A DNA stretch of 32,075 bases. Origin: Pseudomonadota bacterium. GTDB taxonomy: Bacteria; Pseudomonadota; Alphaproteobacteria; UBA9219; RGZA01. Each line of letters starts with the position of its first letter. The stretch's first letter is position 1. Where the stretch lies: positions 1 through 32,075 of the forward strand of contig JACQAB010000066.1 in assembly GCA_016195205.1 (NCBI GenBank). The letters are read 5' to 3'. The notes under the pieces were generated by a model. It did not search any database and was not told the origin of the DNA. It worked only from the letters and a program-made list of their open reading frames with translations. Below are positions 2,654 through 30,205 of this stretch, one piece after another. Made by a program: the position numbers and the translations under genes.

Positions 2654-3097
2654 CTACTCGGTGGCGCCCTGTGTTTGGCCATCCCCTAAGCCACTCCGTC
2701 TCTTTTTGATATTTTCAATGGCCTGCAGGGCCTTCTGGCATTCGGTGGGCGGCTTCTTCTTTCCATTCTTTTTGCTGCCCTTACGTGCGTCGAGGTACAG
2801 CCACGACACCCCCGTATCACAATAAGCCAGCCGGATTTTGGCCGTATAATCGGCCTCGGTTTCCTGGCAGGCATAAATATCGTCCATCGCTTTCGCCTGC
2901 CGGATGCACGTCATCACATCCTTGATCCGGTCCATCCGTTCCACGCGATTTTGGAGCGCCAGCTGTTTCGCGACCTCGAAATCCTTGGGGTGGCCATACA
3001 TTTTTATGTCTTTGAATGGATCATTCCCTTCGGCATGAAGCGGCGCAGCCGCAAGCACGGCGAGAAATAAAAAGGCGGAAAGGATCCAGTTTCTCAT
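2654..3097 (-). CDS. Small secreted 4-Cys protein, tandem paralog 2 (unknown function)
   Basis: 147 aa with a GAGGG SD and signal peptide MRNWILSAFLFLAVLAAAPLHA. It aligns with 2207-2632 over about 100 aa, with four conserved Cys. Confidence 0.7.
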   Translation of the reverse strand: MRNWILSAFLFLAVLAAAPLHAEGNDPFKDIKMYGHPKDFEVAKQLALQNRVERMDRIKDVMTCIRQAKAMDDIYACQETEADYTAKIRLAYCDTGVSWLYLDARKGSKKNGKKKPPTECQKALQAIENIKKRRSGLGDGQTQGATE

Positions 3098-7922: not shown

Positions 7923-7967
7923 TGGTGGACAATACAGGGCTCGAACCTGTGACCCGCTGATTAAGAG
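7923..7967 (-). repeat. Orphan 3' half of tRNA-Lys (CCA end to anticodon loop); att-like direct repeat
   Basis: tggtggacaatacagggctcgaacctgtgacccgctgattaagag matches 15448-15492 at 44 of 45 positions (hand alignment). The adjacent sequence cannot supply a D-arm or the 5' acceptor strand, so this is not a functional tRNA. Confidence 0.85.
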
Positions 7968-8636: not shown

Positions 8637-9199
8637 TGAATACGGAAAAGAACCCTTTAAATCCTGAAACCGGGAATGAACGGCTGGAAATCCTCATGTC
8701 TCTTGCTCTTGCGGGAGACAGAAAGGCCTATGAGCGGGTTTTGCGCCTTGTTAGCCAGCGGTTAACCGTTTTTCTTGGCCGGAAGCTCCCCGCCAAAGAC
8801 CGCGACGATGTGATGCAGGAGATTTTGCTTTCCATTCATAAGGCCCGCCATACCTACGATCCGGCCAGGCCGCTGATGCCCTGGGTTATGGCCATTGCCC
8901 GCTACCGGATGCATGACCATTGGCGGCGGCATTACGGCCATTCTTTCGATGAAATGGCCGATATTGAGGATTTAAAAAATATTTTGAGCACGGACATAAC
9001 CGAAACCCTTCATGGTAACGAAGATATAAGAAGGATACTTGTGACCTTGCCGGAGCGGCAGCAGGTAATCCTTGAATTGATGTACCGGCAGGACAAAAGC
9101 GTGCGGGAGGTTGCCAAACAGTTAAAAATGAGCGTTTCGGCGGTGAAAGTCGCGGCGCACCGGAGCTACAAGATTTTCCGCAAACATCTGAAAGCGTAG
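8636..9199 (+). CDS. ECF-type RNA polymerase sigma-70 factor (SigF/ECF16-like)
   Basis: 187 aa. Region 2 (DDVMQEILLSIHKARHTYDPARPLMPWVMAIARYRMHDHWRR) and region 4 HTH (LPERQQVILELMYRQDKSVREVAKQLKMSVSAVKVAAHRS). It is followed 5 nt later by a DUF1109-type anti-sigma. An alternative start exists at 8696. Confidence 0.85.
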   Translation: MNTEKNPLNPETGNERLEILMSLALAGDRKAYERVLRLVSQRLTVFLGRKLPAKDRDDVMQEILLSIHKARHTYDPARPLMPWVMAIARYRMHDHWRRHYGHSFDEMADIEDLKNILSTDITETLHGNEDIRRILVTLPERQQVILELMYRQDKSVREVAKQLKMSVSAVKVAAHRSYKIFRKHLKA

Positions 9200-9204
9200 A
9201 AGAA

Positions 9205-9843
9205 ATGTCGAAAACCGATGAAACCATAGGCAGTATTTTAGCTACGGCTACGCCGGTTAAAACAGCGCAGCCCATGCGCCTTTTGCTGGGCTGGCTTGCC
9301 GTGACGGTGGTGGGAACGTTTTTGATGGTGCTGTTCATGGCTCCCCGTGATGATCTTGCCCTGCAACTGGCCTCGCCATTGTTCCTTGCGGAAACAATTC
9401 TCTTGATAGCCCTGATTGTCACTTCGGCATTTGTCGCAGTCTGCCTCTGCTTTCCCGATATGTGTCAAAGGCATTGGATGCTTTATGCGCCGCTCCTGCC
9501 GCTGGCGGCTTATTCTGCGCTGCTCGGCTACCAACTCGTGCATCCGGAAATGGTGGCGCTGCCTGCCGTTAAGATGGGCGGCGTTGATTGCGCCTTATGC
9601 ATCAGCATGTTTGCCGTTATTCCGGGGTTCTGGATGTTTCATATCTTGCACCGCCATGCCACCACCCACCCGATCCTTGCCGGGGCCGTATCCCTGCTAA
9701 CAGCGTCGAGCATCGGGCACCTGGTGCTTAAATTCGTGGAAAAAAACGATGCTATCTCGCATCTGGCCTTATGGCATTTCCTGCCGATCTTGCTGCTGGC
9801 GGCTGTTGGCGCCTTTTTGGGCAGGAAATTTTTATCTTGGTAG
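9205..9843 (+). CDS. DUF1109 / NrsF-like membrane anti-sigma factor
   Basis: 212 aa with about six predicted TM segments and several Cys residues, sitting directly downstream of the ECF sigma. This is the standard partner arrangement of the SigF-NrsF type. Confidence 0.7.
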   Translation: MSKTDETIGSILATATPVKTAQPMRLLLGWLAVTVVGTFLMVLFMAPRDDLALQLASPLFLAETILLIALIVTSAFVAVCLCFPDMCQRHWMLYAPLLPLAAYSALLGYQLVHPEMVALPAVKMGGVDCALCISMFAVIPGFWMFHILHRHATTHPILAGAVSLLTASSIGHLVLKFVEKNDAISHLALWHFLPILLLAAVGAFLGRKFLSW

Positions 9844-9872: not shown

Positions 9873-9931
9873 TAGAAAATTATGCAGGCACTCTTCGCTT
9901 GCCGTTAACAACCATCCTCAAGGAGAAAATC

Positions 9932-10204
9932 ATGAATAAGACCGTTCTATGCGCCGCTTTGGCGGGGGTTTTGGCCGCTGGTATGGCCGGAAGCGCTTAT
10001 GCCGCCGACATGCCCAACAAGGAAAAATGTTACGGCATCGCCAAGGCAGGAAAAAATGACTGCAAATCCATGAGCGGCTCGCACTCCTGTGCCGGTCATT
10101 CCACGAAGAACTATGATCCGGGCGATTTCAAGGTGGTCAACAAAGGCCAGTGCGAAAAGCTGGGCGGCTCTCTGGCAGCCCCCGAAGCAGCTCCGGCTGA
10201 GTAA
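9932..10204 (+). CDS. DUF2282-type secreted 4-Cys precursor peptide (bufferin/GigA-like)
   Basis: 90 aa with SD AAGGAGA 5 nt upstream of the ATG at 9932 (the ORF track extends to a TTG at 9899). Signal peptide MNKTVLCAALAGVLAAGMAGSAYA, then EKCYGIAKAGKNDCKSMSGSHSCAGHS...NKGQCEKLGG, which matches the DUF2282 signature as I remember it. Confidence 0.85.
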   Translation: MNKTVLCAALAGVLAAGMAGSAYAADMPNKEKCYGIAKAGKNDCKSMSGSHSCAGHSTKNYDPGDFKVVNKGQCEKLGGSLAAPEAAPAE

Positions 10205-10255: not shown

Positions 10256-11122
10256 ATGAATCATTCTGCTTATCCTTATCTTGGCTTCGGGCTTGGCCTT
10301 CGCGCCCCGCATTATGAACAGGTTTTGCGCGAACAGCCTGATGTGGACTGGTTCGAGATCATCTCGGAAAATTTCATCGATGCCCATCAAGGCTATTGGG
10401 ATTATCTTGCCGATCTGCGCTGTGATTACCCGCTGGTGATGCATGGTGTTTCACTGTCCATCGGCAGCCCCGATCCATTGAACCAGGAATATCTGCGCAA
10501 ACTAAAAAAACTGGCGGATTTTATAAAACCGGCATGGCTTTCCGATCATCTTTGCTTCACCGGGCTGGGCGGCCATAACACCCACGATCTGTTGCCTTTG
10601 CCCTATACGCAGGAAGCCCTGCGCCATGTCATTGCGCGTGTGGACGAGGCGCAGGAGCGCCTTGGGCGCGTCATCGTACTTGAAAATCCCTCGACCTATT
10701 TTGAATACCGGCAATCCGAACTGGCGGAGTGGGATTTTTTGCGCGAGTTGGCGAAAGCCACCGGCTGCGGGATTTTGCTGGATGTGAACAATGTTTACGT
10801 CAGCGCCTTCAATCACGGTTTTGATCCGAAAACCTATATCGACGCCATTCCCGCCGAAGCCATCGCCCAAATCCATCTGGCCGGACACAAGAATAAGGGA
10901 ACGCATATCGTCGACACGCATGACGCGCCCGTGATTGAGGATGTATGGGGTTTATACGCCACCACCATCGCGCAAAAAGGCAGTATCAGCACGCTGATCG
11001 AGTGGGATGAAAATATCCCGCCGTTGGCAACCCTGCTTGCTGAAATGGAGAAGGCCCGCGCATTTATTCAAAACAAAACTCCCTCCAAACGCGCCCGTCA
11101 TGACTTACACGAATATGCTTGA
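10256..11122 (+). CDS. DUF692 family MNIO enzyme (MbnB/BufB-like)
   Basis: 288 aa. LGFGLGLRAPHYEQVL...VDWFEIISENF...LVMHGVSLSIGS...PAWLSDHLCFTG...VLENPSTY...LLDVNNVYVSAFNHGFD...IAQIHLAGH is the characteristic DUF692 TIM-barrel pattern. Confidence 0.9.
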   Translation: MNHSAYPYLGFGLGLRAPHYEQVLREQPDVDWFEIISENFIDAHQGYWDYLADLRCDYPLVMHGVSLSIGSPDPLNQEYLRKLKKLADFIKPAWLSDHLCFTGLGGHNTHDLLPLPYTQEALRHVIARVDEAQERLGRVIVLENPSTYFEYRQSELAEWDFLRELAKATGCGILLDVNNVYVSAFNHGFDPKTYIDAIPAEAIAQIHLAGHKNKGTHIVDTHDAPVIEDVWGLYATTIAQKGSISTLIEWDENIPPLATLLAEMEKARAFIQNKTPSKRARHDLHEYA

Positions 11123-11885
11123 GAAAGTGCAGGATTCCATCATCAGCGGCGATGCCGGGGTTGCGGCCCCGTTGGTGCGGCCAAACCCACGGCTTTCAGC
11201 CTCCGCGTTGCTTGGTATTTATATCGAAGGCTACCGGATAAGGCTTTCGCAGGCGGTGCGCTCCGATTATCCCTGTCTTGCCCATTATCTGGGTGAAGAG
11301 CGGATGAATGGGCTGGTTGCCGCCTATGTGAAAAAAACGCCTTCGTGTTCCTATAATCTCGATCACTACCCCTTCGCCTTCCGCCGTTTTGTCGCACAAG
11401 CTTGTGAGGATGAAGCCGCCCATGCGCTGGCGGAACTGGAAGGCGTGATGGCAGAAGTCTTTATGCTGCCGGAAAGCGCGCCGATGGATTTTGAAAGCTT
11501 TGGCAGCCTCGATGCCGAAAGCCTTGGCCGTATGAGCTTTGCATTACGTTCTGCCGGGATGCTCATCCGGCTTGCCTATGACGCGGAAGCTTATTTACAG
11601 GCCTACAAAAAGGGCGAAGCAGAAAAAGATATTCAGAAACGCCCGGCCCATCTCTACCTTTACCGGCACGATAACGAAGTGAAGCGGCAGCAACTTGAGA
11701 TAGCCGAATATCAGGTGTTAAGCGCCCTTGGCCACGGAGAAAGTTTCAGCGCCGCTATTGAAACGGCGCTGGCTTCGCACATTTACGCTGCCGCTGCCTT
11801 GGCAGAAAAAATCCGGTCGTGGCTGCCGAAATGGATCGGGCAGGGCTTCTTCGCCCATACGGAAAGGGTGAAAAAATCGGTGTAA
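11100..11885 (+). CDS. DUF2063 domain protein (MNIO partner, BufC-like)
   Basis: Follows and overlaps the DUF692 gene. N-terminal pattern LLGIYIEGYRIRLSQAVRSDYPCLAHYLGEERMNGLVAAYVKKTP fits DUF2063. The start is ambiguous (11100 or 11115); the track start at 11007 would overlap by 116 nt. Confidence 0.75.
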   Translation: MTYTNMLEKVQDSIISGDAGVAAPLVRPNPRLSASALLGIYIEGYRIRLSQAVRSDYPCLAHYLGEERMNGLVAAYVKKTPSCSYNLDHYPFAFRRFVAQACEDEAAHALAELEGVMAEVFMLPESAPMDFESFGSLDAESLGRMSFALRSAGMLIRLAYDAEAYLQAYKKGEAEKDIQKRPAHLYLYRHDNEVKRQQLEIAEYQVLSALGHGESFSAAIETALASHIYAAAALAEKIRSWLPKWIGQGFFAHTERVKKSV

Positions 11886-11969: not shown

Positions 11970-12098
11970 ATGTCCATGATGTGCAAATCCGGCGCGTGCC
12001 GAGCCAAGAGTGGCCCCTGCATCCATGAAAAACTGATGCTGGCGATGATGGTTATAGCCATCCCGCTTTTAGGACATTTCGCGTTTCACTGGTTTTAA
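11970..12098 (+). CDS. 42-aa Cys-rich membrane-anchored peptide (hypothetical)
   Basis: SD AAGGGAGA upstream of the ATG at 11970. MSMMCKSGACRAKSGPCIHEKLMLAMMVIAIPLLGHFAFHWF has three N-terminal Cys plus one TM helix. The track ORF begins earlier at 11913 without an SD. Confidence 0.45.
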   Translation: MSMMCKSGACRAKSGPCIHEKLMLAMMVIAIPLLGHFAFHWF

Positions 12099-15447: not shown

Positions 15448-15523
<76 letters not shown>

Positions 15524-15687: not shown

Positions 15688-16617
15688 ATGAACCAGCTGC
15701 GTCTTAAACCGACCCCGCAAAGTCTGCCCACGCCCGCGCAGAAACAGCGTGCCGCGTGTTGGTTCACGGAATTACAGGGGCAATTCTGCGTGGCGCTGGA
15801 AGAGATCGAGCAGGAATATGCCACACAAAAAGGTGGAGCGGTACAAAAATTCCAACGCAAGGATTGGATCCGTGAAACCCACGATAACGTGCCCGGCGGT
15901 GGCGGCAACATGGCCCTGCTCAAAGGCCAGGTATTCGAAAAGGCCGGCGTGAATGCGTCGGAAGTGTTCGGGCAATTTTCAAAAGAGTTTCGCGCACAAA
16001 TCCCGGGTGCCGATGGCGCAGTCGCGGTTGCGCGAAGCGCAGAGCAGTCGCGCCAAGAATATGAAGACGGCGCGTTCTGGGCCGCCGGAATCAGCCTGGT
16101 GGTGCATCCGCGCAACCCGAAAATTCCCGCAGTGCATATGAACACGCGGCACATCGCCACGCGTTTTGGCTGGTTCGGCGGCGTGGCTGATCTGAATCCG
16201 GTTTTCCCCGATGCGCAGGATGTTGAAGCCTTCCACGCCGCGCTGGGGCGCGTTTGCGGCACCGACACCCCCGCCTGGAAAAAGGAATGCGATGAATATT
16301 TCACCATCAAACACCGCAAAAAGCCGCGCGGCGCGGGCGGGGTGTTTTTTGACGATCTGAACCGCGGCGACTGGGAGGCTGATTTCGCTTTGGTCCAGGC
16401 CCTGGGCGAGGCGGTGCTAAAGGCCTATCCGGCCATCGCGCGGCGGCATTTGTTTGAAAGTTACACGCCGGAAGAACGCGAGGCGCAACTGGTGTGGCGC
16501 GGGCATTATGCCGAGTTCAACCTGGTCTATGACCGCGGCACCAAATTCGGGCTGATGACCGGCGGCAATGTCGACGCCGTGCTCATGTCCCTGCCGCCCG
16601 AGGCCAAGTGGCTTTAG
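15688..16617 (+). CDS. hemF: Oxygen-dependent coproporphyrinogen III oxidase
   Basis: 309 aa with GGGGNMALLKGQVFEKAGVN, ISLVVHPRNPKIPAVHMNTRH, RGAGGVFFDDL and YAEFNLVYDRGTKFGL, all typical HemF motifs. It carries an extra segment of about 16 aa (see the repeat at 16016-16054). Confidence 0.95.
   Translation: MNQLRLKPTPQSLPTPAQKQRAACWFTELQGQFCVALEEIEQEYATQKGGAVQKFQRKDWIRETHDNVPGGGGNMALLKGQVFEKAGVNASEVFGQFSKEFRAQIPGADGAVAVARSAEQSRQEYEDGAFWAAGISLVVHPRNPKIPAVHMNTRHIATRFGWFGGVADLNPVFPDAQDVEAFHAALGRVCGTDTPAWKKECDEYFTIKHRKKPRGAGGVFFDDLNRGDWEADFALVQALGEAVLKAYPAIARRHLFESYTPEEREAQLVWRGHYAEFNLVYDRGTKFGLMTGGNVDAVLMSLPPEAKWL
16016..16054 (+). repeat. 39-nt GC-rich element copy inside hemF, in-frame
   Basis: gcgcagtcgcggttgcgcgaagcgcagagcagtcgcgcc matches the reverse complement of 24255-24293 at 38/39 and 21478-21516 at 36/39 (hand alignment). 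It encodes AVAVARSAEQSR in the loop between the conserved IPGA and FWAAGISL. Confidence 0.8.
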
Positions 16618-18097: not shown

Positions 18098-18106
18098 GGG
18101 AGTAAT

Positions 18107-18160
18107 GAGTAGTGAGTAATGAGGAGTGAATCAATACTCACTCCTCATTACTCACTACTC
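18107..18160. repeat. Perfect 23-bp-stem hairpin in the aguA-aguB spacer
   Basis: gagtagtgagtaatgaggagtga / atcaatac / tcactcctcattactcactactc. The arms are exact reverse complements and are internally repetitive (GAGTAATGAG twice). The aguA stop codon (complement of 18155-18157) lies inside the right arm. Confidence 0.85.
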
Positions 18161-19213
18161 GGGCTCCTGCTGCGTGATGCAATGAAACGAGCCGCCGCCG
18201 CTTAAAATCGCATGCGAGGGCAAACCCACCACCTCGCGCCCCGGGAACAGGGGCTTCAGCGCCGACACCGCCTCCTTGCCGCGCGCGTTATACACCGGCA
18301 CCACCACGGTTTTATTGCCGATGATGAAATTCATATGGCTGGCGGCCTGCAGTTCCGGCACCTCGCTGTCGATCCGACCCGGCGAGGGAATGGTGATCAC
18401 CTCCAGATTCATGCCGCGCAGCGCGGTTTCAATTTCTTTCAAGACTGCGGCGTTCGGGTCATCCGCGCCGCTGGCGTGCTGGCAGACCACTTTGCCGGGG
18501 GCGACAAAGCGCGCCAGGTTGTCGATATGCCCGTCGGTGTGGTCGGCGGGCAAGCCGCGCTCGAGCCACAGGATTTTCTCGAAGCCCAGCGCGGTTTTCA
18601 GCGCTTCAGTGGCAGCAGTTTCCGTCCAGCCCTTGTTGCGGTTGGGATTCAGCAGGCATTGGCGGGTGGTGAGGCACAGGCCGTTGCCGTCAAATTCCAG
18701 CGAACCGCCTTCAAGAATGAAATCATGCTTTTGCGTTGGAATATTTGCGGCAGCGGCGATTTTTTCATTCACGCTTTCATCGCCCGGGTAAATAAATTTC
18801 CCGCCCCAGCCGTTGAATTTGAATAGATGCGCAATGGGGGCTGAGGGGCTAGGGGGCTGGGGGGCTGGCAAATCCAATTTTCCCCGAGCCCCCAAGCCCC
18901 CGAGTCCCCGAGTCCCGAATATTGGCCCTGTATCGCGCAGCCAGGTATCGCCATAGGGAATTTCAAAAATTTCGGCGATACCCTTCAATCTTTCCTTGGC
19001 GCTTTGCAGCCCGCCGCCGCAGGCCAGCACTTTTACGTGATCGCCGCCTGACAAGGCGCGGATCATGGCTTCCACCTCGTCCTGCGCCCCTGAAAGCGCC
19101 TCGAACCACGCCTCAGGGTCCCACGGCCAGGCCGTCCAGATGGCCTTATGCGGGGCCCATTCAGCGGGGATGGACGCAGGCGAAGACGGGTTCTGTTTCA
19201 GCGCGGGTTGCAT
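18155..19213 (-). CDS. aguA: Agmatine deiminase
   Basis: 352 aa with WLRDTGPIF, FNGWGGK, HTDGHIDN and the C-terminal GGGSFHCITQQEP catalytic Cys motif. It carries an in-frame repeat insertion (18836-18916). Confidence 0.9.
   Translation of the reverse strand: MQPALKQNPSSPASIPAEWAPHKAIWTAWPWDPEAWFEALSGAQDEVEAMIRALSGGDHVKVLACGGGLQSAKERLKGIAEIFEIPYGDTWLRDTGPIFGTRGLGGLGARGKLDLPAPQPPSPSAPIAHLFKFNGWGGKFIYPGDESVNEKIAAAANIPTQKHDFILEGGSLEFDGNGLCLTTRQCLLNPNRNKGWTETAATEALKTALGFEKILWLERGLPADHTDGHIDNLARFVAPGKVVCQHASGADDPNAAVLKEIETALRGMNLEVITIPSPGRIDSEVPELQAASHMNFIIGNKTVVVPVYNARGKEAVSALKPLFPGREVVGLPSHAILSGGGSFHCITQQEPE
18836..18916. repeat. G-tract/C-tract palindromic element inserted in-frame in aguA
   Basis: gggggctgaggggctagggggctggggggctgg-caaatccaattttc-cccgagcccccaagcccccgagtccccgagtccc is 81 nt (27 codons). 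It encodes GTRGLGGLGARGKLDLPAPQPPSPSAP between the conserved RDTGPIF and FNGWGGK. Confidence 0.8.
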
Positions 19214-19733: not shown

Positions 19734-19818
19734 GTCATGCCCGCGTAGGCGGGTATCCACGAAAGCCACAGGCTACGGCTTCTGGCCTATCGTGGACCCC
19801 CGCCTACGCGGGGGTGAC
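19734..19818. repeat. Palindromic REP/MITE-like element of about 85 bp
   Basis: gtcatgCCCGCGTAGGCGGGtatCCACGA...TCGTGGacccCCGCCTACGCGGGggtgac. The arms are about 23 nt and nearly perfect. It is intergenic, between the hypothetical gene and the decarboxylase. Confidence 0.7.
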
Positions 19819-21477: not shown

Positions 21478-21516
21478 GCGCAGTCGCGGTTATGCGAAGC
21501 GCAGAGCAGCCGCGCC
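21478..21516 (+). repeat. Intergenic copy of the 39-nt GC-rich element
   Basis: gcgcagtcgcggttatgcgaagcgcagagcagccgcgcc matches the hemF copy at 36/39. Confidence 0.75.
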
Positions 21517-21661: not shown

Positions 21662-21765
21662 TTCCCCTCCCCTTGCCCTCCTTCGCTAAAGCTAAGGAGG
21701 GTCTGGGCGAACCCGTCCGCCGAAGCTTTGGCGGAGGCGGAAGGGAGGAGCTAGGGGAGAGGGGT
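21662..21765. repeat. Composite palindromic element; its parts recur inside pheT
   Basis: The outer arms begin tcccctccccttgccctccttcgc, identical over 24 nt to 24723-24746. The interior 21677-21737 is the reverse complement of 24520-24580 with few mismatches, including a near-identical stretch of about 50 nt. Confidence 0.7.
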
Positions 21766-21948
21766 GGAGCGTGACGTTTCTCAAAGCCCTACCGTTTAAG
21801 CTCGCCGCAATCTTCTGACCCTACCCCTTTATCCCCTCCCTCAGAGGGAGGGGAAATAATTTTTCCAGACGGGCTCCTTAACAAAAAATTTCCATGCCGC
21901 CGCGCGCCGACTCTGAAAATTTTCTTGTAAAAACCCTTTATAAATAGC

Positions 21949-22299: not shown

Positions 22300-22335
22300 C
22301 GGGCGAGTCGGCCGGGCGAAAGCGCCTGCCCTCAT

Positions 22336-22383
22336 CCATGTCATCCCGGGCGAGCGGCAGCTGTGAGACCCGGGATGACATGG
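22336..22383. repeat. Perfect 15-bp inverted repeat (ccatgtcatcccggg / cccgggatgacatgg)
   Basis: The arms are at 22336-22350 and 22369-22383 with an 18-nt loop. It is related to the gtcatccc...gggat motif inside pheT at 24441-24469. Confidence 0.75.
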
Positions 22384-22609
22384 GTGGCCCCGCGCCAAGT
22401 TTCGGGGGGCTTGTTAGCTTGCCGAACTTTTCGATTTTCAGGATATTAACGAATGCGGCGTTGAAATCGTTAAAATTTACGGAGGCGTTTCATGTCGCAG
22501 TGCACGGAAACTTTTCTTGTTAACCATAAGAATTCGCTTGTGAGAACTGCAAAACTTGTTCTAGGGTTTTTTTCACTTTATCAATCCCTTTATCTTTTAG
22601 GAGAACAAC

Positions 22610-23423: not shown

Positions 23424-26138
23424 TTATTTTCTTAAAACCGCTCCCGCCGCCCTGTGCGCCGCGGCGATGATTTTTTCCGACAGCGCTTCCAGCTCCGCTT
23501 CCGTTAGCGTCTTCTCACGCGGCTGAAAACGCACTTCCAGCGCCAGCGATTTCTGCCCCGGCGCGACATTCGCGCCCTCGTACACGTCAAATACCTCCAC
23601 CCCGGCGATCAGCTGGCGTTCCACGGCGCGGATGGCCTTGACCAGCTTTTCAGCCTCCACCCCCCTGTCCAGCACGAAGGCGAAGTCGCGCCGCACTGGC
23701 TGCAGGTCGGGCAGCTCGAGCAGCGGCCTGGCCGGGCCGGTTTCTTTTAGCGGCGGCAGGGCCTCGAAAAACACCTCAAACCCGGCGGTGGCCGTTTTCA
23801 CTTCCAGCTTCTTCAGGATCGCCGGATGGAGTTCTCCGAAATGAGCCAGCACCGTGGCGCCCAGCTTGAGCACGCCCGAACGGCCGGGGTGATACCAGGC
23901 GGGCGCCTCGGCCACCGCCTGAAGGCCGCCCAGCGGAACCCCCACCGCTTCCAGCGCCGCCAGCGCGTCGGCCTTGGCGTCGAACAGGTCTACCGCGCGC
24001 GGCTCCACCGCCCAGTGGCGCGGCACGGCGAGGCCTGTGCGTAAGCCCGAGGCAGCCATGATCTGCCCCTCGGGCGCGGCGGAGCGGTAGATCGAGCCTA
24101 CCTCGAACAGGGCGGTGTCGGCAAAGCCGCGATCGGCGTTGCGCCGTGCGGCCATCAGCAGGTTGGGAAGAATACTGCCGCGCATGGCGTCCAGCTCGGC
24201 GCTGATGGGGTTCTGCAGAAGAATAGGTTGCGGCTCGCTCTGCGCTCTTATCTCGGCGCGACTACTCTGCGCTTCGCGCAACCGCGACTGCGCTGGCAAC
24301 CGCTCGCTCGCTAAAAAAAGCTTGGCAATAACGGACGGCATGAACGACCAGGTAACCACCTCCAGCAGCCCCCGGGCTGCCAGGGCCTTGCGCGCCGACT
24401 CGCGGCGGCGTTGTTGCAAATTCCATCCAAAAGAAACACCGTCATCCCAGCGCATGCTGGGATCCATGGCCACCGCCTTTCTGCCGGATAGGTTTCTGCC
24501 ATGGATGCCAGCCTTTCCGCCTTCGCTAAAGCTTCGGCGGACGGGCTCGCCCAGACCCTCCGTAGCTTTAGCGAAGGAGGGCGCTGGCATGACATTGCTA
24601 GATGGCAAAGACAGTGCCGGAATTTGATCAAATCCCCTCAGGCGTAAAATCTCTTCCACGCAGTCGGCCTCGCCCTCCAGGTCGGGGCGGGAGGAGGGAA
24701 ATGTTACCTCGAACCCTTCTTCTCCCCTCCCCTTGCCCTCCTTCGCCAAGGCTACGGAGGGCAGGGGGAGGGGAAATCCGGTCTTGCGTTTCACTTCACA
24801 GCCAACGGCTTCCAGTAATTTCTTTTGTTCGTCAGGAGGCACATCCAGCCCGCCGAAACTTTTGCAGCGCGTGGCGCGCAGGAACACGGTGCGGCTTGTA
24901 TCGGGCAGAACGCCGGCCACGATCACCTCGCTGGCCTCGCCGCCACAGGCTTCAAGGATAAGCTGGGTGGCCCACTCGGTCATTTCCACCATGATGGCGG
25001 GGTCGACGCCGCGCTCAAACCGCGTGCGGGCGTCGCTGATGATCTGCAATTTGCGCCCGGCGCGCGCAGTGCGCACGGGATCGAAAGTGGCGCATTCCAA
25101 AAACACTTCGGTGGTCATCTCGGTGCAGCCGGTCTCCATACCGCCCATGATGCCGGCGATGGCCAGGGCTTTTTCATCGTCGGCGATGATGGTGATGCTT
25201 TCATCCAGCACATATTCCTTGCCGTTCAGGGCCAGGAGCTTCTCCCCCGCACGGGCGGGGCGGGCATGCACATCGCCCTTCACCTTGGCGGCGTCGAACA
25301 CATGCAGCGGGCGGGCGGCATCAAATGTCAGATAGTTGGTAATATCGACTAGCGCCGAGATGGGCCGCAGGCCAATCGCTTTCAGCTTGCGCTGCAGGGC
25401 CTCAACCGATGGGCCATTTTTCAAGCCACGAAGGGTGCGGCCAATGAAGTAAGGGCAGGCGTTTTTGTCGGCGGGGCCGAAATCCAGTTTGATGCCGCGC
25501 GGGCTTTTGAATTTGCCTTTCACCGGCTGGGTTTTGCGCGGTTTCAGCCTGCCCAGGCCCGAAGCTGCCAGATCGCGCGCGATGCCGTAAACGCCGAAGC
25601 AATCGGGGCGGTTGGGGGTGAGCTTCACCTCGAACACCGCGTCATCCAGCTCCTGGGTGTCGACGAAAGATTTTCCCACCGGCGCGTCGGCGGGGAGTTC
25701 GATAATCCCTTCATGCTCTTCGCTGAGCAGCAGCTCTTTGGCCGAGCACAGCATGCCGCGCGATTCCACCTCACGGATTTTCGAGATTTTCAGCACCGTG
25801 CCGCTGGCCGGGATCACCGTGCCGGGCGCGGCGAACACGCCCTTCATGCCCGCACGGGCATTGGGGGCGCCACATACCACCTGAACTTTTTCGCGCCCTG
25901 TGTCGACGATGCACAGCTTCAGCCGGTCGGCATTGGGATGTTTCTCGGTGCTTTCCACATAGGCCACGATGAACGGCGCCAACGCCGCCACCGGGCTGGA
26001 AAGGCTTTCCACCTCCAGGCCCAGCCAGGTGAGCTTTTCGGCGATTTCCTTGGCGGAAGCCGTGGTTTCGAGGTGTTCCTTAAGCCAGGAGAGGGTGAAT
26101 TTCATGGAGTCCCGTTTTAACCTTATAGCCCGTTGCAC
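23424..26138 (-). CDS. pheT: Phenylalanine--tRNA ligase beta subunit
   Basis: 904 aa. N-terminal tRNA-binding domain (MKFTLSWLKEHL...HPNADRLKLCIVD), B3/4 and B5 regions, NPISAELDAMRGSILPNLL and a C-terminal anticodon-binding-like domain. It is roughly 100 aa longer than the beta subunits I remember, which is accounted for by three repeat insertions. Confidence 0.95.
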   Translation of the reverse strand: MQRAIRLKRDSMKFTLSWLKEHLETTASAKEIAEKLTWLGLEVESLSSPVAALAPFIVAYVESTEKHPNADRLKLCIVDTGREKVQVVCGAPNARAGMKGVFAAPGTVIPASGTVLKISKIREVESRGMLCSAKELLLSEEHEGIIELPADAPVGKSFVDTQELDDAVFEVKLTPNRPDCFGVYGIARDLAASGLGRLKPRKTQPVKGKFKSPRGIKLDFGPADKNACPYFIGRTLRGLKNGPSVEALQRKLKAIGLRPISALVDITNYLTFDAARPLHVFDAAKVKGDVHARPARAGEKLLALNGKEYVLDESITIIADDEKALAIAGIMGGMETGCTEMTTEVFLECATFDPVRTARAGRKLQIISDARTRFERGVDPAIMVEMTEWATQLILEACGGEASEVIVAGVLPDTSRTVFLRATRCKSFGGLDVPPDEQKKLLEAVGCEVKRKTGFPLPLPSVALAKEGKGRGEEGFEVTFPSSRPDLEGEADCVEEILRLRGFDQIPALSLPSSNVMPAPSFAKATEGLGEPVRRSFSEGGKAGIHGRNLSGRKAVAMDPSMRWDDGVSFGWNLQQRRRESARKALAARGLLEVVTWSFMPSVIAKLFLASERLPAQSRLREAQSSRAEIRAQSEPQPILLQNPISAELDAMRGSILPNLLMAARRNADRGFADTALFEVGSIYRSAAPEGQIMAASGLRTGLAVPRHWAVEPRAVDLFDAKADALAALEAVGVPLGGLQAVAEAPAWYHPGRSGVLKLGATVLAHFGELHPAILKKLEVKTATAGFEVFFEALPPLKETGPARPLLELPDLQPVRRDFAFVLDRGVEAEKLVKAIRAVERQLIAGVEVFDVYEGANVAPGQKSLALEVRFQPREKTLTEAELEALSEKIIAAAHRAAGAVLRK
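24255..24293 (-). repeat. 39-nt GC-rich element inside pheT, in-frame, in a different frame from hemF
   Basis: The reverse complement matches hemF 16016-16054 at 38/39. It encodes AQSRLREAQSSRA within ...FLASERLPAQSRLREAQSSRAEIRAQSEPQPILLQNPIS. Confidence 0.8.
24441..24580. repeat. Block of two palindromic elements inside pheT, in-frame
   Basis: gtcatcccagcgcatgctgggatccatgg (24441-24469) plus ccttcgctaaagcttcggcgg...ccgtagctttagcgaaggagg (24520-24580). Together they encode about APSFAKATEGLGEPVRRSFSEGGKAGIHGRNLSGRKAVAMDPSMRWDDG. Confidence 0.75.
24723..24774. repeat. 52-nt palindromic element inside pheT, in-frame
   Basis: tcccctccccttgccctcc-ttcgccaaggctac-ggagggcagggggagggga encodes about FPLPLPSVALAKEGKGRGE. 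Confidence 0.75.
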
Positions 26139-26173
26139 AGGCCGTTGCCTGACCTTATCCTAAGGAGCGATTC

Positions 26174-26686
26174 ATGCACACTCCCCAATCCGAACCACAA
26201 TCCCGCGCCGGTTCTTTGAACTGGGCCGCCTGCTCTTTATTCCTGAAAAGAGGCATGCCCTTGCTCTCTCGCGCCCTGCCTGATGGCCGTCATGACAGCC
26301 GTCAAGAAACGGTAGCCGCCTATCTTCTTTCCAGATTTGCGCGCGCGACACCCTCGATGGACACACGGCTGGTAAACGCCCTGGCCGGAGGCGAAGCCGC
26401 TTGCCGCTATTTCCGCGCCAACGGCAACAAGGCGACCGTCGTCGGCTGGTTCAGGCCAAAAGATTGTGCTCCCATAGCCGTCGCTGTCACCAGCAAGGGC
26501 AACAGGGCTTTCTGGTGGCACACCGACACTGCACCGGAAAGCCGGAGCGATATTCCCTTTGGCCAGCGCGGGCAGATTTATGAAATTGGCCACAAACAGG
26601 CGGCATGGAATCCCCACGCGGAACGAACCGCAGCCATTCTTCGCAGTGTTTTCTTCCCATCAGCCAAAATTACCACGCCTCATTAA
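26174..26686 (+). CDS. Hypothetical protein, paralog A
   Basis: 170 aa with a strong SD AAGGAG 6 nt upstream of the ATG. It is homologous to the next locus (ALP...SR...CRYFRANGNKATVVGWF...FWWHTD...TAAILRSVF). Confidence 0.55.
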   Translation: MHTPQSEPQSRAGSLNWAACSLFLKRGMPLLSRALPDGRHDSRQETVAAYLLSRFARATPSMDTRLVNALAGGEAACRYFRANGNKATVVGWFRPKDCAPIAVAVTSKGNRAFWWHTDTAPESRSDIPFGQRGQIYEIGHKQAAWNPHAERTAAILRSVFFPSAKITTPH

Positions 26687-26702
26687 AACAAAGGAGACTT
26701 CC

Positions 26703-27100
26703 ATGTATGCTTCAGATGCCCTGCCCCGTTCCAGAGTGCTTTTTCGTGAAGCCTTTACGTCTCTTCGTCTTGGCCTCGGACAAAATATGTCCGCAGCGTC
26801 ACCCTTCCTGTGGACTCGGCCTATTGCCGGGTTTTCTCGGACAACGGCCAGGCCGTGATCACCGGCTGGATGGATGCCGGCGACGGTATTGGCGTGATGC
26901 TGAGGCCGGGTGGGCCGTCTTTCTGGTTTTGGACCGACAATCATCCACGCAGCCTTGAAGATCTTCCCGAACTTGGCTCAAAACGCCTTATGGCGCTTGA
27001 CGGCCCTTCGGCCCATGGTCACGCCACCGCCATGGCCACCATCCTGAGACAACGCTTCGCCAGACGTTTTCCCGAACTCGCGCCCGGCCGCGCGAACTAA
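26703..27100 (+). pseudogene. Paralog B of 26174-26686, interrupted by a frameshift near 26800-26812
   Basis: A strong SD AAGGAGA precedes the ATG at 26703 (frame 0: MYASDALPRSRVLFREAFTSLRLGLGQNMSAASP...). This part is homologous to the paralog A N-terminus but stops at 26858. The homologous C-terminal part (DSAYCRVFSDNGQAVITGWM...FWFWTDN...MATILRQRF) is in the -1 frame (26810-27100). Confidence 0.45.
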
Positions 27101-27232
27101 TCTTGCGGACGACAGGCACTTTGCTACACAACGACGGCGTCCCACCCGCCGCGCCCGGCTGGATGGATTTAAACCAGCGGCCTCATCCCCTGGCCGAAGC
27201 CGCGGATCAAGTCGTCCGCCAGTCTTTTGCCA

Positions 27233-28492
27233 CTAGGTAATCACCACCGCGCGGAAATCATTCACATTGGTGCGCGTTGGGCCGGTGACGATGAGATCGC
27301 CCAGCTTCTCGAAAAATCCATAGGCGTCATTATTGGCCAGGTGATCGGCGGGCTTCAGCCCGGCCGTTTTGGCGCGCGCCAGCGTATCGGCCAGGAAAAT
27401 CGCCCCGGCGTTATCCTCGCTGCCGTCAATGCCGTCGGTGTCGCAGGCGATGCCGGAAATCCTTGCATGGCCCTGCGCGGCTATCGCCAAAGCCAGCAGG
27501 AATTCGGCGTTGCGCCCGCCGCGCCCGCTGCCCTTCAGCGTCACCGTGGTTTCCCCGCCCGACAGCAGCACGCAAGGCGCGAGTGCAGGTTGGCCATGCT
27601 CGGCCACTTGAAAGGCAATTCCCGCCATGGCCTTGGCCACTTCGCGCGCCTCGCCCTCAATCCGGTGGCCCAGGATGACCGGTGTTATCCCGTGCTGCCG
27701 CGCATAAGCCGCCGCGGCTTCCAACGCATCCTGCGGCCTTGCAATCAGGATATTTTCGGCACGCGCCAGGCAGGCATCGCCGGGCTTCACGCTTTCGCTT
27801 GCGGCTTTTTCCAGATGCGCGCTTACCGCCTTCGGCACGCTCAAAGCGTATTTGCGGATGACCGCCTTGGCGTTTTCCAGCGTGGTCGGATCAGCCACCG
27901 TGGGGCCCGAGCCCACCACCGCCGGGTCATCCCCCGGCACGTCGGAAATAATCAGCGTGACGATTTTCGCCTTGCCCGCCGCGCGCGCCAGCCGTCCTCC
28001 GGAGATGGCCGACAGGTGCTTGCGCACGCAATTCATCTCGTCAATCGGCGCGCCGCAGGACAACAAGCTCTTATTCACCGCGCGCAGGTCGTTCATGCTC
28101 AACCCCTCCGCCGGGCAGCTGAGCAGCGCCGAAGCCCCGCCCGACATCAGGCATAAAAGCAAATCCTCCGCGCCCAGCCCGCCCGCCAGTTTCAGCATGC
28201 GCCGCGCGGCCTTCTCGCCATTGTCGTCGGGCATGGGGTGACCCGATTGCATGACCTCGATCTTCTGCGTGGGCAATTCGTGCTTATAACGGGTGACGAC
28301 AAGGCCGCCGATCTTGCCACGCCAATGCGCCTCGGTGGTTTTAGCCATGGCGGCCGCGGCCTTGCCCGCGCCCAGCACCAGGGTACGGCCTTTCGGCGCT
28401 TGCGGCAGATGCGGCGGCAGCGTTTTTTCCGCGCTGACGGATGACAGCGCGGCATGGAAGATGCCGGTGAGAAAGGAGCGTGGTTCGGTCAT
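27233..28492 (-). CDS. Glycerate kinase, DUF4147/MOFRL family (often annotated as hydroxypyruvate reductase)
   Basis: 419 aa with VLGAGKAAAAMA, LLSGGETTVTLKGSGRGGRNAEFLLALA and ACDTDGIDG, the motifs characteristic of this family. Confidence 0.9.
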   Translation of the reverse strand: MTEPRSFLTGIFHAALSSVSAEKTLPPHLPQAPKGRTLVLGAGKAAAAMAKTTEAHWRGKIGGLVVTRYKHELPTQKIEVMQSGHPMPDDNGEKAARRMLKLAGGLGAEDLLLCLMSGGASALLSCPAEGLSMNDLRAVNKSLLSCGAPIDEMNCVRKHLSAISGGRLARAAGKAKIVTLIISDVPGDDPAVVGSGPTVADPTTLENAKAVIRKYALSVPKAVSAHLEKAASESVKPGDACLARAENILIARPQDALEAAAAYARQHGITPVILGHRIEGEAREVAKAMAGIAFQVAEHGQPALAPCVLLSGGETTVTLKGSGRGGRNAEFLLALAIAAQGHARISGIACDTDGIDGSEDNAGAIFLADTLARAKTAGLKPADHLANNDAYGFFEKLGDLIVTGPTRTNVNDFRAVVIT

Positions 28493-28499
28493 GAAACAA

Positions 28500-28570
28500 G
28501 TGATTGGTTTTTAGTGATTAGTTTTTAGTGGAATAACATCACTAACCACCAATCACTAAAAACTAATCAC
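28500..28570. repeat. Hairpin with a 31-bp imperfect stem filling the pheS-glycerate kinase spacer
   Basis: gtgattggtttttagtgattagtttttagtg / gaataacat / cactaaccaccaatcactaaaaactaatcac pairs at 27 of 31 positions (hand count). The arms are tandem GTGATTRGTTTTTA words. The last pheS codons and the stop lie in the right arm. Confidence 0.8.
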
Positions 28571-29657
28571 CCAACACTGAAAACCCATAATGCCGCAGCC
28601 AGCGCAAATCGGCCTCGAAGAAGGTTCTTAAATCGGGAATGCCGTATTTCAGCATCGCCAGGCGCTCGACGCCCATGCCGAAGGCGAAACCCTGGTATTT
28701 GGCAGGGTCGATGTTGCAATTGTTCAGCACCTTGCCATGCACCATGCCGCAGCCCAGCACCTCCAGCCAGTCGTCGCCCTCGCCGATTTTTATTTTGCCG
28801 CCGGGGCGTGAGCAGCCGATATCAACCTCGGCCGAAGGCTCGGTGAACGGGAAGTAAGACGGGCGGAAACGCACCTTCAAATCGGGCACGCCGAAAAAAC
28901 CGCGCAGGAAATCCATCAGCACGCCCTTCAGATGGCCCATATGGGTAGTCTCGTCGATCACCAAGCCTTCCACCTGATGGAACATGGGAGCGTGGGTCTG
29001 GTCGAAATCGCGGCGGAACACGCGTCCCGGCGCCAGGATGCGGATCGGCGGCTTGCTTTGCAGCATGGTGCGCACTTGGACGGGAGAAGTGTGAGTGCGA
29101 AGAACCATGGGGGCTTGGGGGCTTGGGGACTCGGGGTTCGAGCTTTCCAACCCCCCAGCCCCCGAGTCCCCCAGCCCCAGATAAAACGTATCCTGCATCT
29201 GGCGCGCCGGATGGTCAGGCGGCATGTTCAAGGCCGCAAAGTTATAAAAATCGCTCTCGATGTCGGGGCCTTCGGCAACGCTGAAACCCAGCGGCGACAG
29301 CAGCGCCACGATATCGGCGATGGTGCGGGAAATGGGGTGGATCGCGCCCTTGTCTTCCGGGCGCACACTTAAAGTGACATCGGCTTTTTCCGACATCAGC
29401 CGCGCATCCAGCGCCGCCGTGCCCAGCTTGGCCTTGCGCGCCTCGATCAAATTTTCCAGCTCGGACTTCAGCACGTTGATGCGCGCGCCGAAATCCTTGC
29501 GCTCGGTTTCCGGCAGGGTGCCCAGCGTTTTCAGAAGCTCGGTGACGCGGCCCTTTTTGCCCAGGGCCGACACGCGCGCCTCTTCCAGCGCGGCGATGTC
29601 ATTCGCGGCCTCGACGGCCTGCTGGACTTCGGATTTAAGGGTGGAGAGGTCCGTCAT
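28563..29657 (-). CDS. pheS: Phenylalanine--tRNA ligase alpha subunit
   Basis: 364 aa with ALGKKGRVTELLKTLG, HPARQMQDTFY, LRTHTSPVQVRTM, FHQVEGLV, FRPSYFPFTEPS and GFAFGMGVERLAML. It carries an in-frame repeat between DTFY and LRTHTSPVQ. Confidence 0.95.
   Translation of the reverse strand: MTDLSTLKSEVQQAVEAANDIAALEEARVSALGKKGRVTELLKTLGTLPETERKDFGARINVLKSELENLIEARKAKLGTAALDARLMSEKADVTLSVRPEDKGAIHPISRTIADIVALLSPLGFSVAEGPDIESDFYNFAALNMPPDHPARQMQDTFYLGLGDSGAGGLESSNPESPSPQAPMVLRTHTSPVQVRTMLQSKPPIRILAPGRVFRRDFDQTHAPMFHQVEGLVIDETTHMGHLKGVLMDFLRGFFGVPDLKVRFRPSYFPFTEPSAEVDIGCSRPGGKIKIGEGDDWLEVLGCGMVHGKVLNNCNIDPAKYQGFAFGMGVERLAMLKYGIPDLRTFFEADLRWLRHYGFSVLGD
29109..29178. repeat. G-tract/C-tract palindromic element inserted in-frame in pheS
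   Basis: gggggcttgggggcttggggactcgggg-ttcgagctttccaa-ccccccagcccccgagtcccccagcccc encodes GLGDSGAGGLESSNPESPSPQAP. It belongs to the same family, orientation and reading frame as the aguA copy. Confidence 0.8.
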
Positions 29658-30107: not shown

Positions 30108-30126
30108 GGTTTTCTCCTTGAAATTA

Positions 30127-30200
30127 GGGGCTGAGGGGCTGGGGGACTCGGGGGGATTAAACTTTTTCTCAACCCCTTAGCCCCTGAGTCCCTTAGCCCC
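30127..30200. repeat. G-tract/C-tract palindromic element in the rpmI-rplT spacer
   Basis: ggggctgaggggctgggggactcgggggg-attaaactttttctcaa-ccccttagcccctgagtcccttagcccc uses the same word family as the copies inside aguA and pheS. Confidence 0.8.
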
Positions 30201-30205
30201 GATGT

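Follow-up and report, generated by a model that had tools for sequence, protein, structure and literature searches.

We report that pheT, the gene for the beta subunit of phenylalanyl-tRNA synthetase (PheRS), carries three extra in-frame segments of repeat DNA within 520 nt in a 32,075-nt metagenome contig of an alphaproteobacterium (JACQAB010000066.1 of assembly GCA_016195205.1; this whole stretch is referred to as the window). In our judgement the gene has very probably been invaded at three places by several families of small non-autonomous repeats, selfish DNA that was tolerated while selection filtered its frame and location. A first-pass annotation of the same DNA had proposed three independent insertions; the three sites stand, but the number of elements was undercounted, since at least five are present and two of the sites are nested composites.

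Three segments distinguish PheT of the window from its orthologues

The pheT open reading frame (ORF; 23424..26138, minus strand) has 904 codons when counted from a GTG at 26138, as first noted together with an excess of about 100 amino acids (aa). Orthologues align from the ATG at 26105, a start that yields a coding sequence (23424..26105, minus strand) of 893 aa and lowers the excess over the 119 nearest orthologues to about 93 aa (approximately 94 extra codons). This excess is confined to three segments, here called inserts 1 to 3. Nearly all of the 119 clusters are 792-806 aa long, and the closest is 68% identical to PheT of the window over aligned columns. The orthologue check proposed at first pass detected no homologous peptides at the three insert sites in any of the 119 clusters (0/119), nor in L081, a syntenic relative on a 1.97-Mb contig from the Joint Genome Institute (JGI) that was found through P0004. 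L081 has the same gene order as the window (maeB-rpmI-rplT-pheS-DUF4147-pheT-...-decarboxylase-aguA), and alignment to it gives +19/20, +51 and +24 codons at the three inserts. The corresponding nucleotide alignment falls into blocks 26126-24990, 24700-24628 and 24218-23424, with breaks at or near the insert edges. Upon re-alignment, a lineage-specific insert of at least 8 aa was present in only 12 of the 120 nearest PheT clusters, the largest load being that of PheT of the window. The peptides quoted for the inserts by the first-pass annotation are correct and the frame is open throughout.

All five PheT domains were found by Pfam and in order (tRNA_bind, B3_4, B5, tRNA_synthFbeta and FDX-ACB). 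In a search of the PDB, the best matches among solved structures (E 7e-128) were beta chains of bacterial PheRS measuring 785-795 aa, whose alignments skip three stretches of the window protein. All columns invariant among 64 orthologues are retained, and the ratio of nonsynonymous to synonymous substitution rates (dN/dS) between pheT and its L081 counterpart was estimated at 0.17 from 798 aligned codons, dS being close to saturation. The enzyme core, as judged from these comparisons, is intact and under purifying selection. Given the intact core, the confident model described below, the retained invariant columns and the dN/dS value, PheT looks functional, and the decorated enzyme most likely works. 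When PheT was used as a query against contigs, only relatives at 53% identity or less were returned. The host is an uncultured Rhodospirillales-like alphaproteobacterium; its nearest named relatives by PheT are Azospirillum, Skermanella and Magnetospirillum, and its GC content is 57%.

An AlphaFold2 model of PheT built on 65 sequences has a mean predicted local distance difference test score (pLDDT) of 85 and matches PheRS beta chains in Foldseek (4p71_A, E 5e-78). Insert 1 lies between the two strands of the B5 hairpin wing, where 10-residue block means of pLDDT fall to 64 and 51 (residues 441-460) and values below 50 are limited to residues 449-451 and 456-458. Insert 2 lies between the last B5 helix and the helix that opens the next module, and insert 3 follows helix 591-598; they correspond to longer segments below 50, at residues 499-561 and 600-624. 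Outside the inserts, pLDDT is below 50 at residues 789-798 only. According to the model, the inserts are probably disordered, hydrophilic surface loops. Stretches of peptide that span insert junctions include ..TGFPLPLPSVALAK.., ..SFSEGGK.., ..AVAMDPSMR.. and ..LPAQSR... The first-pass annotation had placed the inserts in linkers; this holds for insert 2, which occupies an inter-domain linker, but inserts 1 and 3 are in loops within B5 and B6.

Insert 2 is a dimeric repeat with a second element nested in one arm

The repeat nature of the three segments, proposed at first pass, is borne out by copies elsewhere in the window at numbers far above chance. Insert 2 (24441..24593, minus strand) is a composite of exactly 153 nt (51 codons) between B5 and the catalytic-like module that runs from GTC to GAC and encodes VMPAPSFAK...SMRWDD. 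Once these 153 nt are taken out, the residue count at the site equals that of L081 exactly. The insert folds with -50.3 kcal/mol (z -7.7). Read on the plus strand, it consists of GTCATCCCAGCGCATGCTGGGATCCATGG, a 29-nt spacer and CCATGGATGCCAGC, and the matching half, GCTGGCATGAC, stands 70 nt further on. Arm A (24441..24469, plus strand) has a (C)GTC tag, the C of which is base 24440, a stem ATCCCAGC/GCTGGGAT, a GCAT loop and a CCA tail, and is followed by the spacer (24470..24498, plus strand). Arm B is present in two halves on the plus strand, the inner one (24499..24512) with tail and 5' stem, CCATGG ATGCCAGC, and the outer one (24583..24593) with 3' stem and tag, GCTGGCAT GAC; the stem pairs with GCTGGCAT at 24583-24590. 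The interrupted loop between the halves (24513..24582, minus strand) holds a 66-nt element, T2, and the original 4-nt loop, with ambiguity as to which 4 nt these are. Because 70 nt separate the two sides of the arm-B stem, ATGCCAGC and GCTGGCAT, insert 2 is read as a dimer, T1, with T2 nested in one hairpin loop. The first-pass annotation had recognised the palindrome and the reverse-complement element but ended the insert at 24580 and took the components to be adjacent.

Both components have counterparts in intergenic DNA of the window. T2 is laid out as a hairpin (H1), a 15-nt spacer and a second hairpin (H2) in inverted orientation, and folds with -23.3 kcal/mol (z -4.5). Positions 24512-24582 are the reverse complement of 21675-21745 (71 nt, 93%), and the nested element (66-68 nt) matches the intergenic T2 at 21675-21742 with 94% identity (68 nt aligned). 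T1 without the nested 66 nt measures 87 nt, compared with 85 nt for an uninterrupted head-to-head dimer at 19734..19818 (plus strand), 40 nt downstream of the ornithine/arginine decarboxylase gene; this intergenic copy has a spacer of 27 nt and folds with -36.1 kcal/mol (z -7.5). Both 87 and 66 are divisible by three, as stepwise insertion in an essential gene requires. A further T1-related hairpin, GTCATCCCGGG...CCCGGGATGAC, lies at 22333..22386 (plus strand) in the spacer between pheT and the decarboxylase gene; its 18-nt arms are 94% complementary.

By sequence, the T1 arms are repetitive extragenic palindromic (REP) sequences of the CGTC-1 type, as every structural feature described for that type is present. 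The tag, CGTC with variants TGTC and CCTC, reads CGTC in arm A and TGTC in arm B of pheT, AGTC and TGTC in the intergenic copy, and CGTC in L206, a relative discussed below. The 8-bp stem with complementary A-T at positions one and two and a 4-nt loop is represented by ATCCCAGC-GCAT-GCTGGGAT, ATGCCAGC-(interrupted)-GCTGGCAT and ATGCCCGC-GTAG-GCGGGTAT. The consensus tail CCA follows every T1 arm (CCATGG or CCACGA), and the head-to-head dimer, with tags outside and a spacer of 20-100 bp, is seen with spacers of 27 nt (19734-19818), 29 nt (pheT) and 38 nt (L206).

Insert 1 is a long hairpin built around the H1 core

Insert 1 (T3; 24723..24774, minus strand) is a single long hairpin with 25-bp arms, in which outer arms TCCCCTCCCC(T/C)TG and CAAGGGGAGGGGA, also written TCCCCTCCCCTT / AGGGGGAGGGGA, enclose the 27-nt H1 core (24735..24761, plus strand; GCCCTCCTTCGCCAAGGCTACGGAGGG). 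It folds with -23.2 kcal/mol (z -4.7). The extra codons by alignment span about 24726-24785 (19-20 aa, ..GFPLPLPSVALAKEGKGRGE..), with edges that cannot be fixed at such divergence, and lie in the beta-hairpin "wing" of domain B5. The repeat that the first-pass annotation noted as shared with the region from 21663 is present, 24723-24761 matching 21663-21701 at 92%. The partner is an intergenic composite (21662..21770, plus strand) with the same T3-type outer arms, inside which sits the T2 double hairpin where insert 1 has H1 alone; insert 1 and the nested T2 thus share it as their partner. The H1 pattern occurs in the window at 21675-21701, 24556-24582 and 24735-24761, i.e. three times against 0.00 expected from dinucleotide shuffles.

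Insert 3 combines a dispersed core with arms of another element

Insert 3 (24243..24314, minus strand) adds 72 nt or 24 codons by alignment, LASERLPAQSRLREAQSSRAEIRA, to a loop of the B6 module. Its central 39 nt (T4 core, 24255..24293, minus strand; GCGCAGTCGCGGTTGCGCGAAGCGCAGAGTAGTCGCGCC) are a non-palindromic dispersed repeat, and no significant hairpin is predicted (z -0.6). These 39 nt had been noted as an element shared with hemF, which is correct, but they are only the core of the insert, and a third copy exists. Positions 24251-24293 are the reverse complement of 16016-16058 in hemF (43 nt, 95%) and of the intergenic stretch 21478-21516 (90%; 21478..21516, plus strand). With up to three mismatches allowed, these are three copies against 0.00 expected from dinucleotide shuffles, and the flanks of the copies are unrelated. 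In hemF (15688..16617, plus strand) the T4 copy (16016..16054, plus strand) is likewise in frame (..GAVAVARSAEQSRQ..) and is read in another frame than in pheT, T4 being translated as AQSRLREAQSSRA in pheT and GAVAVARSAEQSR in hemF. This argues against selection for one particular peptide.

On either side of the core lie stretches of a different element, T6. The left arm (24297..24313, minus strand; TAGCGAGCGAGCGGTTG) is a 17-nt exact match to an element inserted in pheT and pheS of the relative L204, and the right arm (24227..24245, minus strand; GCGCAGAGCGAGCCGCAAC) is a 19-nt exact match to an insert in pheT of the relative L205 (9309-9389). If both arms are counted, the DNA of insert 3 spans about 24227-24313, up to 87 nt, with edges that cannot be fixed to the base. 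From the sequence, the simplest reading of insert 3 is a T6 element within which a T4 core is nested.

Inserts of several families recur at the B5 wing and in relatives

Among the 120 nearest PheT clusters, inserts fall at seven places. The B5 wing (residues 438-443 in Azospirillum numbering) has received unrelated inserts in at least five lineages, including T3 in the window, T1 in P0010 and a T5-like PQPPSPQG in P0012 and P0021. L018 adds a sixth case with a 28-aa insert, PSPS...GGGEGRGE; a 3178-nt match had suggested a very long PheT there, but the protein measures 833 aa and this single insert is all it carries. Two further inserts are at PheT positions 453-455. Window sites 2 and 3 were found in no other lineage of the 120 clusters. 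The term hotspot used at first pass thus fits the B5 wing loop and not sites 2 and 3, which are unique to the lineage. Recurrence at the wing points to a permissive loop in B5, and tolerance explains it as well as targeting would.

The PheT of P0010 (L206; NCBI GCA_048498415.1) carries an independent 99-nt T1 dimer, ..MPAKAGIH...DPRLRGDD.., at the B5 wing and not at the linker. In L204, T6 is inserted in frame in pheS (8805-8843) and in pheT (10379-10438), and T4-like units of the form GCGCAG-nnn-CGGTTGCG ... GCGCAGAG-nnn-TCGCGCC (11402-11479 and 12005-12070) explain two further PheT inserts; L205 has in-frame inserts at 9090-9161 and 9309-9389, the latter in pheT. Since L204 and L205 carry T6 and T4-like inserts of their own, in-frame decoration belongs to a clade and not to one genome. 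The families also form mosaics in other organisms, as indicated by L089 (4229-4443), where the spacer of a CGTC-1 head-to-head dimer holds a T2-like double hairpin, and by CGTC REPs beside a T3-arms-plus-T2 composite in the unrelated metagenome contig L133 (1100-1340), the latter repeating the architecture of 21662-21770. CGTC-type dimers similar to T1 were present in other alphaproteobacterial loci in a pattern scan, albeit one that misses known copies. Conversely, blastn-short found no copies of the element types of the window in approximately 1.4 Mb from the loci of 83 relatives, L081 included, which indicates that the specific families were gained, or expanded, in the lineage of the window.

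The H1 hairpin also occurs in a contig of another phylum

H1 (GCCCTCCTTCGCYAARGCTAMGGAGGG) has exact matches in at least 120 metagenome contigs (loci L084-L203) with unrelated flanks and GC contents of 32-72%. It lies inside RNase P RNA in at least three contigs (L143, L158 and L194) and directly 3' of tmRNA in at least four (L122, L151, L152 and L173), as well as 3' of several tRNAs. For 35 of 123 occurrences among the matches listed, the frame stays open across 60 codons or more to either side. The eight protein hosts that were checked are all genuine enzymes, namely MnmA, a 5'-3' exonuclease, an AMP-binding ligase (acyl-CoA synthetase), CarA, a XerC/D-type recombinase, a gamma-glutamyltranspeptidase, FtsK and an E2 acyltransferase. 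H1 is translated as PSFAKATEG, PSVALAKEG or LLRQGYGG, according to its strand and reading frame. The CarA host belongs to Candidatus Kaiserbacteria (Candidate Phyla Radiation), a phylum other than that of the alphaproteobacterium of the window.

Rfam gave only a tRNA at gathering thresholds and, with E up to 1, sub-threshold matches to generic (miRNA-precursor-like) hairpins, with no H1 family; IMG/VR gave two matches; among 72,556 plasmids there was no real match and two weak partial ones. Literature searches on the H1 peptides and DNA strings found no trace in the papers covered. One tentative reading of H1 is a mini-element of roughly 30 nt, not described before, that may spread horizontally and decorate both proteins and structured RNAs in different bacterial phyla, though we hold this to be rather doubtful at present; the cross-phylum hairpin is nonetheless the part of this work most likely to be new.

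Repeats and other features in the remainder of the window

Palindromes of tandem GGGGCTnn octamers form a further family, T5. One copy is in frame in pheS (29110..29183, minus strand; ..GLGDSGAGGLESSNPESPSPQAP..), where it adds 15 aa relative to L081, and another is in frame in the agmatine deiminase family gene aguA (18837..18921, minus strand), adding 19 aa relative to L081; the nucleotide alignment of aguA with L081 breaks at 18836 and 18915 and leaves 18837-18914 unaligned. A third copy is intergenic between rplT and rpmI (30119..30205, plus strand). The T4 copy in hemF is a probable in-frame insertion as well, a solved HemF showing a 9-residue gap at this place. Overall the genome appears rich in small repeat elements. 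AT-rich palindromes at 18100-18160 and 28500-28577, intergenic beside aguA and pheS and built from 7-nt units (GAGTAGT/GAGTAAT and GTGATTA/GTTTTTA), are yet another hairpin family.

The gene pheS (28563..29657) lies upstream of pheT, after rpmI and rplT. It is separated from pheT by a DUF4147/MOFRL (glycerate-kinase-like) gene at 27233-28492, an arrangement common to L081. Between this gene and pheT is a 1.1-kb stretch without a convincing gene (26139-27232), the L081 counterpart of which measures 0.33 kb. The spacer between pheT and the decarboxylase gene is 2.1 kb in the window and 1.2 kb in L081, and houses several repeat copies.

Two observations concern other parts of the window. A 298-nt direct repeat (2335-2632 and 2800-3097; 73% identity) has its copies 465 nt apart. 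In addition, the stretches 7923-7967 and 15448-15523, which comprise tRNA-Lys(CTT) and a 45-nt repeat of its 3' part at 98% identity, flank 7.5 kb of DNA that looks like the scar of an integrated island; no integrase was seen. Its genes encode DoxX, an extracytoplasmic function (ECF) sigma factor with an NrsF anti-sigma factor, MbnB/DUF692, DUF2063 and a DUF255 thioredoxin-like protein, and a small, Cys-rich ORF with a signal peptide is located at about 9929-10204. We presume the segment to resemble a bufferin-type cluster for a ribosomally synthesised and post-translationally modified peptide.

A model for the decoration of pheT and its alternatives

Under the explanation that we favour, invasion by small repeats, the B5 wing loop (site 1) would have received a 52-60-nt hairpin built on the H1 core. 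The B5/B6 linker (site 2) would first have received an 87-nt head-to-head CGTC-1-type REP dimer, similar to a REPIN (REP doublet forming a hairpin), and later a 66-nt double hairpin that entered the loop of one REP arm; a T6 element with the 39-nt T4 core between its arms would have entered the B6 loop (site 3). Every inserted piece has a length divisible by three and is free of stops in the pheT frame. On this account the in-frame pattern is a survivorship filter and no property of the elements, as other insertions in an essential gene are lethal and never observed, so that only frame-keeping insertions in permissive loops are seen. The elements may move as single-stranded hairpins through an HUH/Y1-type enzyme similar to REP-associated tyrosine transposases (RAYTs), or through another enzyme, and the nesting might reflect a preference for hairpin loops. 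It is a property of single-strand transposition of the IS200/RAYT type that no target duplications are left. We infer the single-stranded route from the REPIN-like architecture of T1 and T2 and the lack of target duplications, as in IS200/RAYT-type transposition (PMC3116915).

Several points weigh against this explanation. The 32-kb window holds no transposase, RAYT or insertion sequence (IS) that we could find, and no Y1_Tnp was seen among the scanned ORFs; for CGTC REPs no dedicated transposase is known in any case (PMC3733652). No target-site duplication is present at site 2, where the flanks read ..AGCAAT / element / GGTGTT... T4 and T6 are not palindromes, and a hairpin-based mechanism is not obviously applicable to insert 3. 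Repeat copies were counted within 32 kb of the genome only, and the inserts are known from the assembled contig alone.

This last point bears on whether a short-read metagenome assembler threaded repeat copies into an undecorated pheT. The window is a single 32-kb metagenome contig, and repeats are a classic source of misassembly. Such an artefact would nevertheless have to supply, at each of three sites, a multiple-of-three, stop-free segment with collinear pheT on both sides; the pheT copies differ from the others by 1-4 substitutions and are therefore not the same reads collapsed, and the same phenomenon is seen in relatives assembled independently (JGI, Logan and NCBI). We regard an artefact as extremely unlikely. 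An intein, an intron or a programmed bypass was considered and rejected, as the frames are open, PheT has no extra Pfam domains, no Rfam family matches and the inserts measure 19-51 aa. That pheT is a decaying or redundant copy, with another gene supplying the function, could be argued from its heavy load (94 aa), from the separation of pheS and pheT by another gene and a 1.1-kb spacer, and from the 32 kb of genome in view, which allow for a second, clean pheT elsewhere, again a point against the invasion explanation. The 893-codon frame is intact, no residue invariant in 64 orthologues has been lost, dN/dS is 0.17, the adjoining pheS is intact and the rpmI-rplT-pheS-(DUF4147)-pheT context is conserved in common with L081, all of which makes decay very unlikely.

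Positive selection for the inserted peptides as functional acquisitions (binding surfaces or regulatory loops) would account for different families recurring at the B5 wing loop in at least five lineages, with L018 adding another. The role of B5, a domain of winged-helix-like type, is unclear, and the idea has been raised in the literature on Rickettsia palindromic elements (RPEs; PMC10969869). The peptides at the wing are mutually unrelated, however, the same DNA is found in different frames (T4 in hemF and pheT) and in intergenic DNA, and the segments are predicted to be disordered; we consider functional acquisition quite improbable. A more serious competitor is an origin by local replication errors or gene conversion between hairpin-forming sequences (templated insertion, copy-choice) instead of transposition. 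It fits the lack of target-site duplications and the modular mosaic, in which the outer arms around the H1 core vary and T4 may have T6 arms or lack them, and T5, as a tandem-octamer palindrome, could grow by slippage. Yet near-identical copies with unrelated flanks are present at several loci, and the same families at other sites in other organisms fit a mobile element better; single-strand transposition likewise leaves no duplications. This origin has a low but real probability and, with no mobilising enzyme in the window and none known for CGTC REPs, is a live rival, especially for the non-palindromic T4 and T6 and the octamer-built T5.

Relation to known small repeats

The pheT inserts are an unusually dense new case of a known phenomenon, that of RPEs and intragenic REPs. 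The RPE-like reading given at first pass is supported in that the inserts reside in low-pLDDT loops, as for RPEs and intragenic REPs (PMC10969869, PMC3733652). RPEs (Ogata et al. 2000, as summarised in PMC10969869) are palindromic repeats found in intergenic DNA and in frame in unrelated housekeeping genes, with inserts that add fold-compatible loops and several families per genome. Here, too, repeats are in frame in unrelated genes, namely pheT, pheS, aguA and probably hemF, and have intergenic copies. In contrast to RPEs, the host is not Rickettsia but a Rhodospirillales-like bacterium from the environment with 57% GC, the units measure 27-87 nt versus about 100-150, and two of three sites are nested composites, with five elements in 520 nt of one gene. 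None of the elements belongs to RPE-1 to RPE-10 as far as can be judged without RPE consensus sequences, the sole link being the CGTC-1 format that T1 shares with RPE-6.

RPE-6 and Neisseria dRS3 have been assigned to CGTC-1, RPE-6 and RPE-4 belong to the CGTC REP superfamily, and this superfamily occurs mainly in alphaproteobacteria (Di Nocera et al. 2013, PMC3733652). The same study lists intragenic REPs, including cases in tRNA synthetase genes, in Xanthomonas oryzae, Erythrobacter litoralis and Sphingopyxis alaskensis; its main text gives no PheT case of a CGTC-1 REP. CGTC-1 families number tens to thousands of units per genome (PMC3733652), and the 32-kb window has two dimers and one related hairpin. 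One difference is that one pheT arm holds a nested foreign element. With REPINs (Bertels and Rainey 2011, PMC3116915) T1 and T2 share two inverted units plus spacer that fold into one hairpin, but REPINs are extragenic almost by definition and no RAYT is in the window. Bacterial interspersed mosaic elements of E. coli and Neisseria intergenic mosaic elements, in which dRS3 flanks other repeats, similarly combine and nest small repeat families at one place, and in L089, too, a CGTC dimer encloses a T2-like double hairpin; those clusters are intergenic, whereas the pheT mosaic is translated within an essential enzyme. Miniature inverted-repeat transposable elements (Coxiella QMITE1/2, PMC5896051; ERIC, Nezha) resemble the inserts in being non-autonomous, in having terminal inverted repeats (29-nt arms in T1) and in extending or interrupting ORFs in frame. 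The pheT elements are much shorter than is typical of these, show no target-site duplication at site 2 and have no related IS in the window.

In-frame colonisation by selfish repeats is textbook knowledge for Rickettsia and is listed for some REP-rich genomes; the present case adds an environmental lineage of GC-rich alphaproteobacteria. It is also an extreme one: within 520 nt, an aminoacyl-tRNA synthetase gene that is under purifying selection contains five elements from several families, two of which are nested. The insert sites provide a natural map of permissive positions in PheRS beta, i.e. the B5 wing, the B5/B6 linker and the B6 loop, which would be useful for tagging or engineering. 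The nesting in a REP loop is direct sequence evidence that the hairpin of one small element can serve as a target for another, even in a coding region. Should the reading of H1 as a spreading element prove true, it would imply that phyla share a mobile hairpin of very small size, mobilised by an as yet undescribed enzyme.

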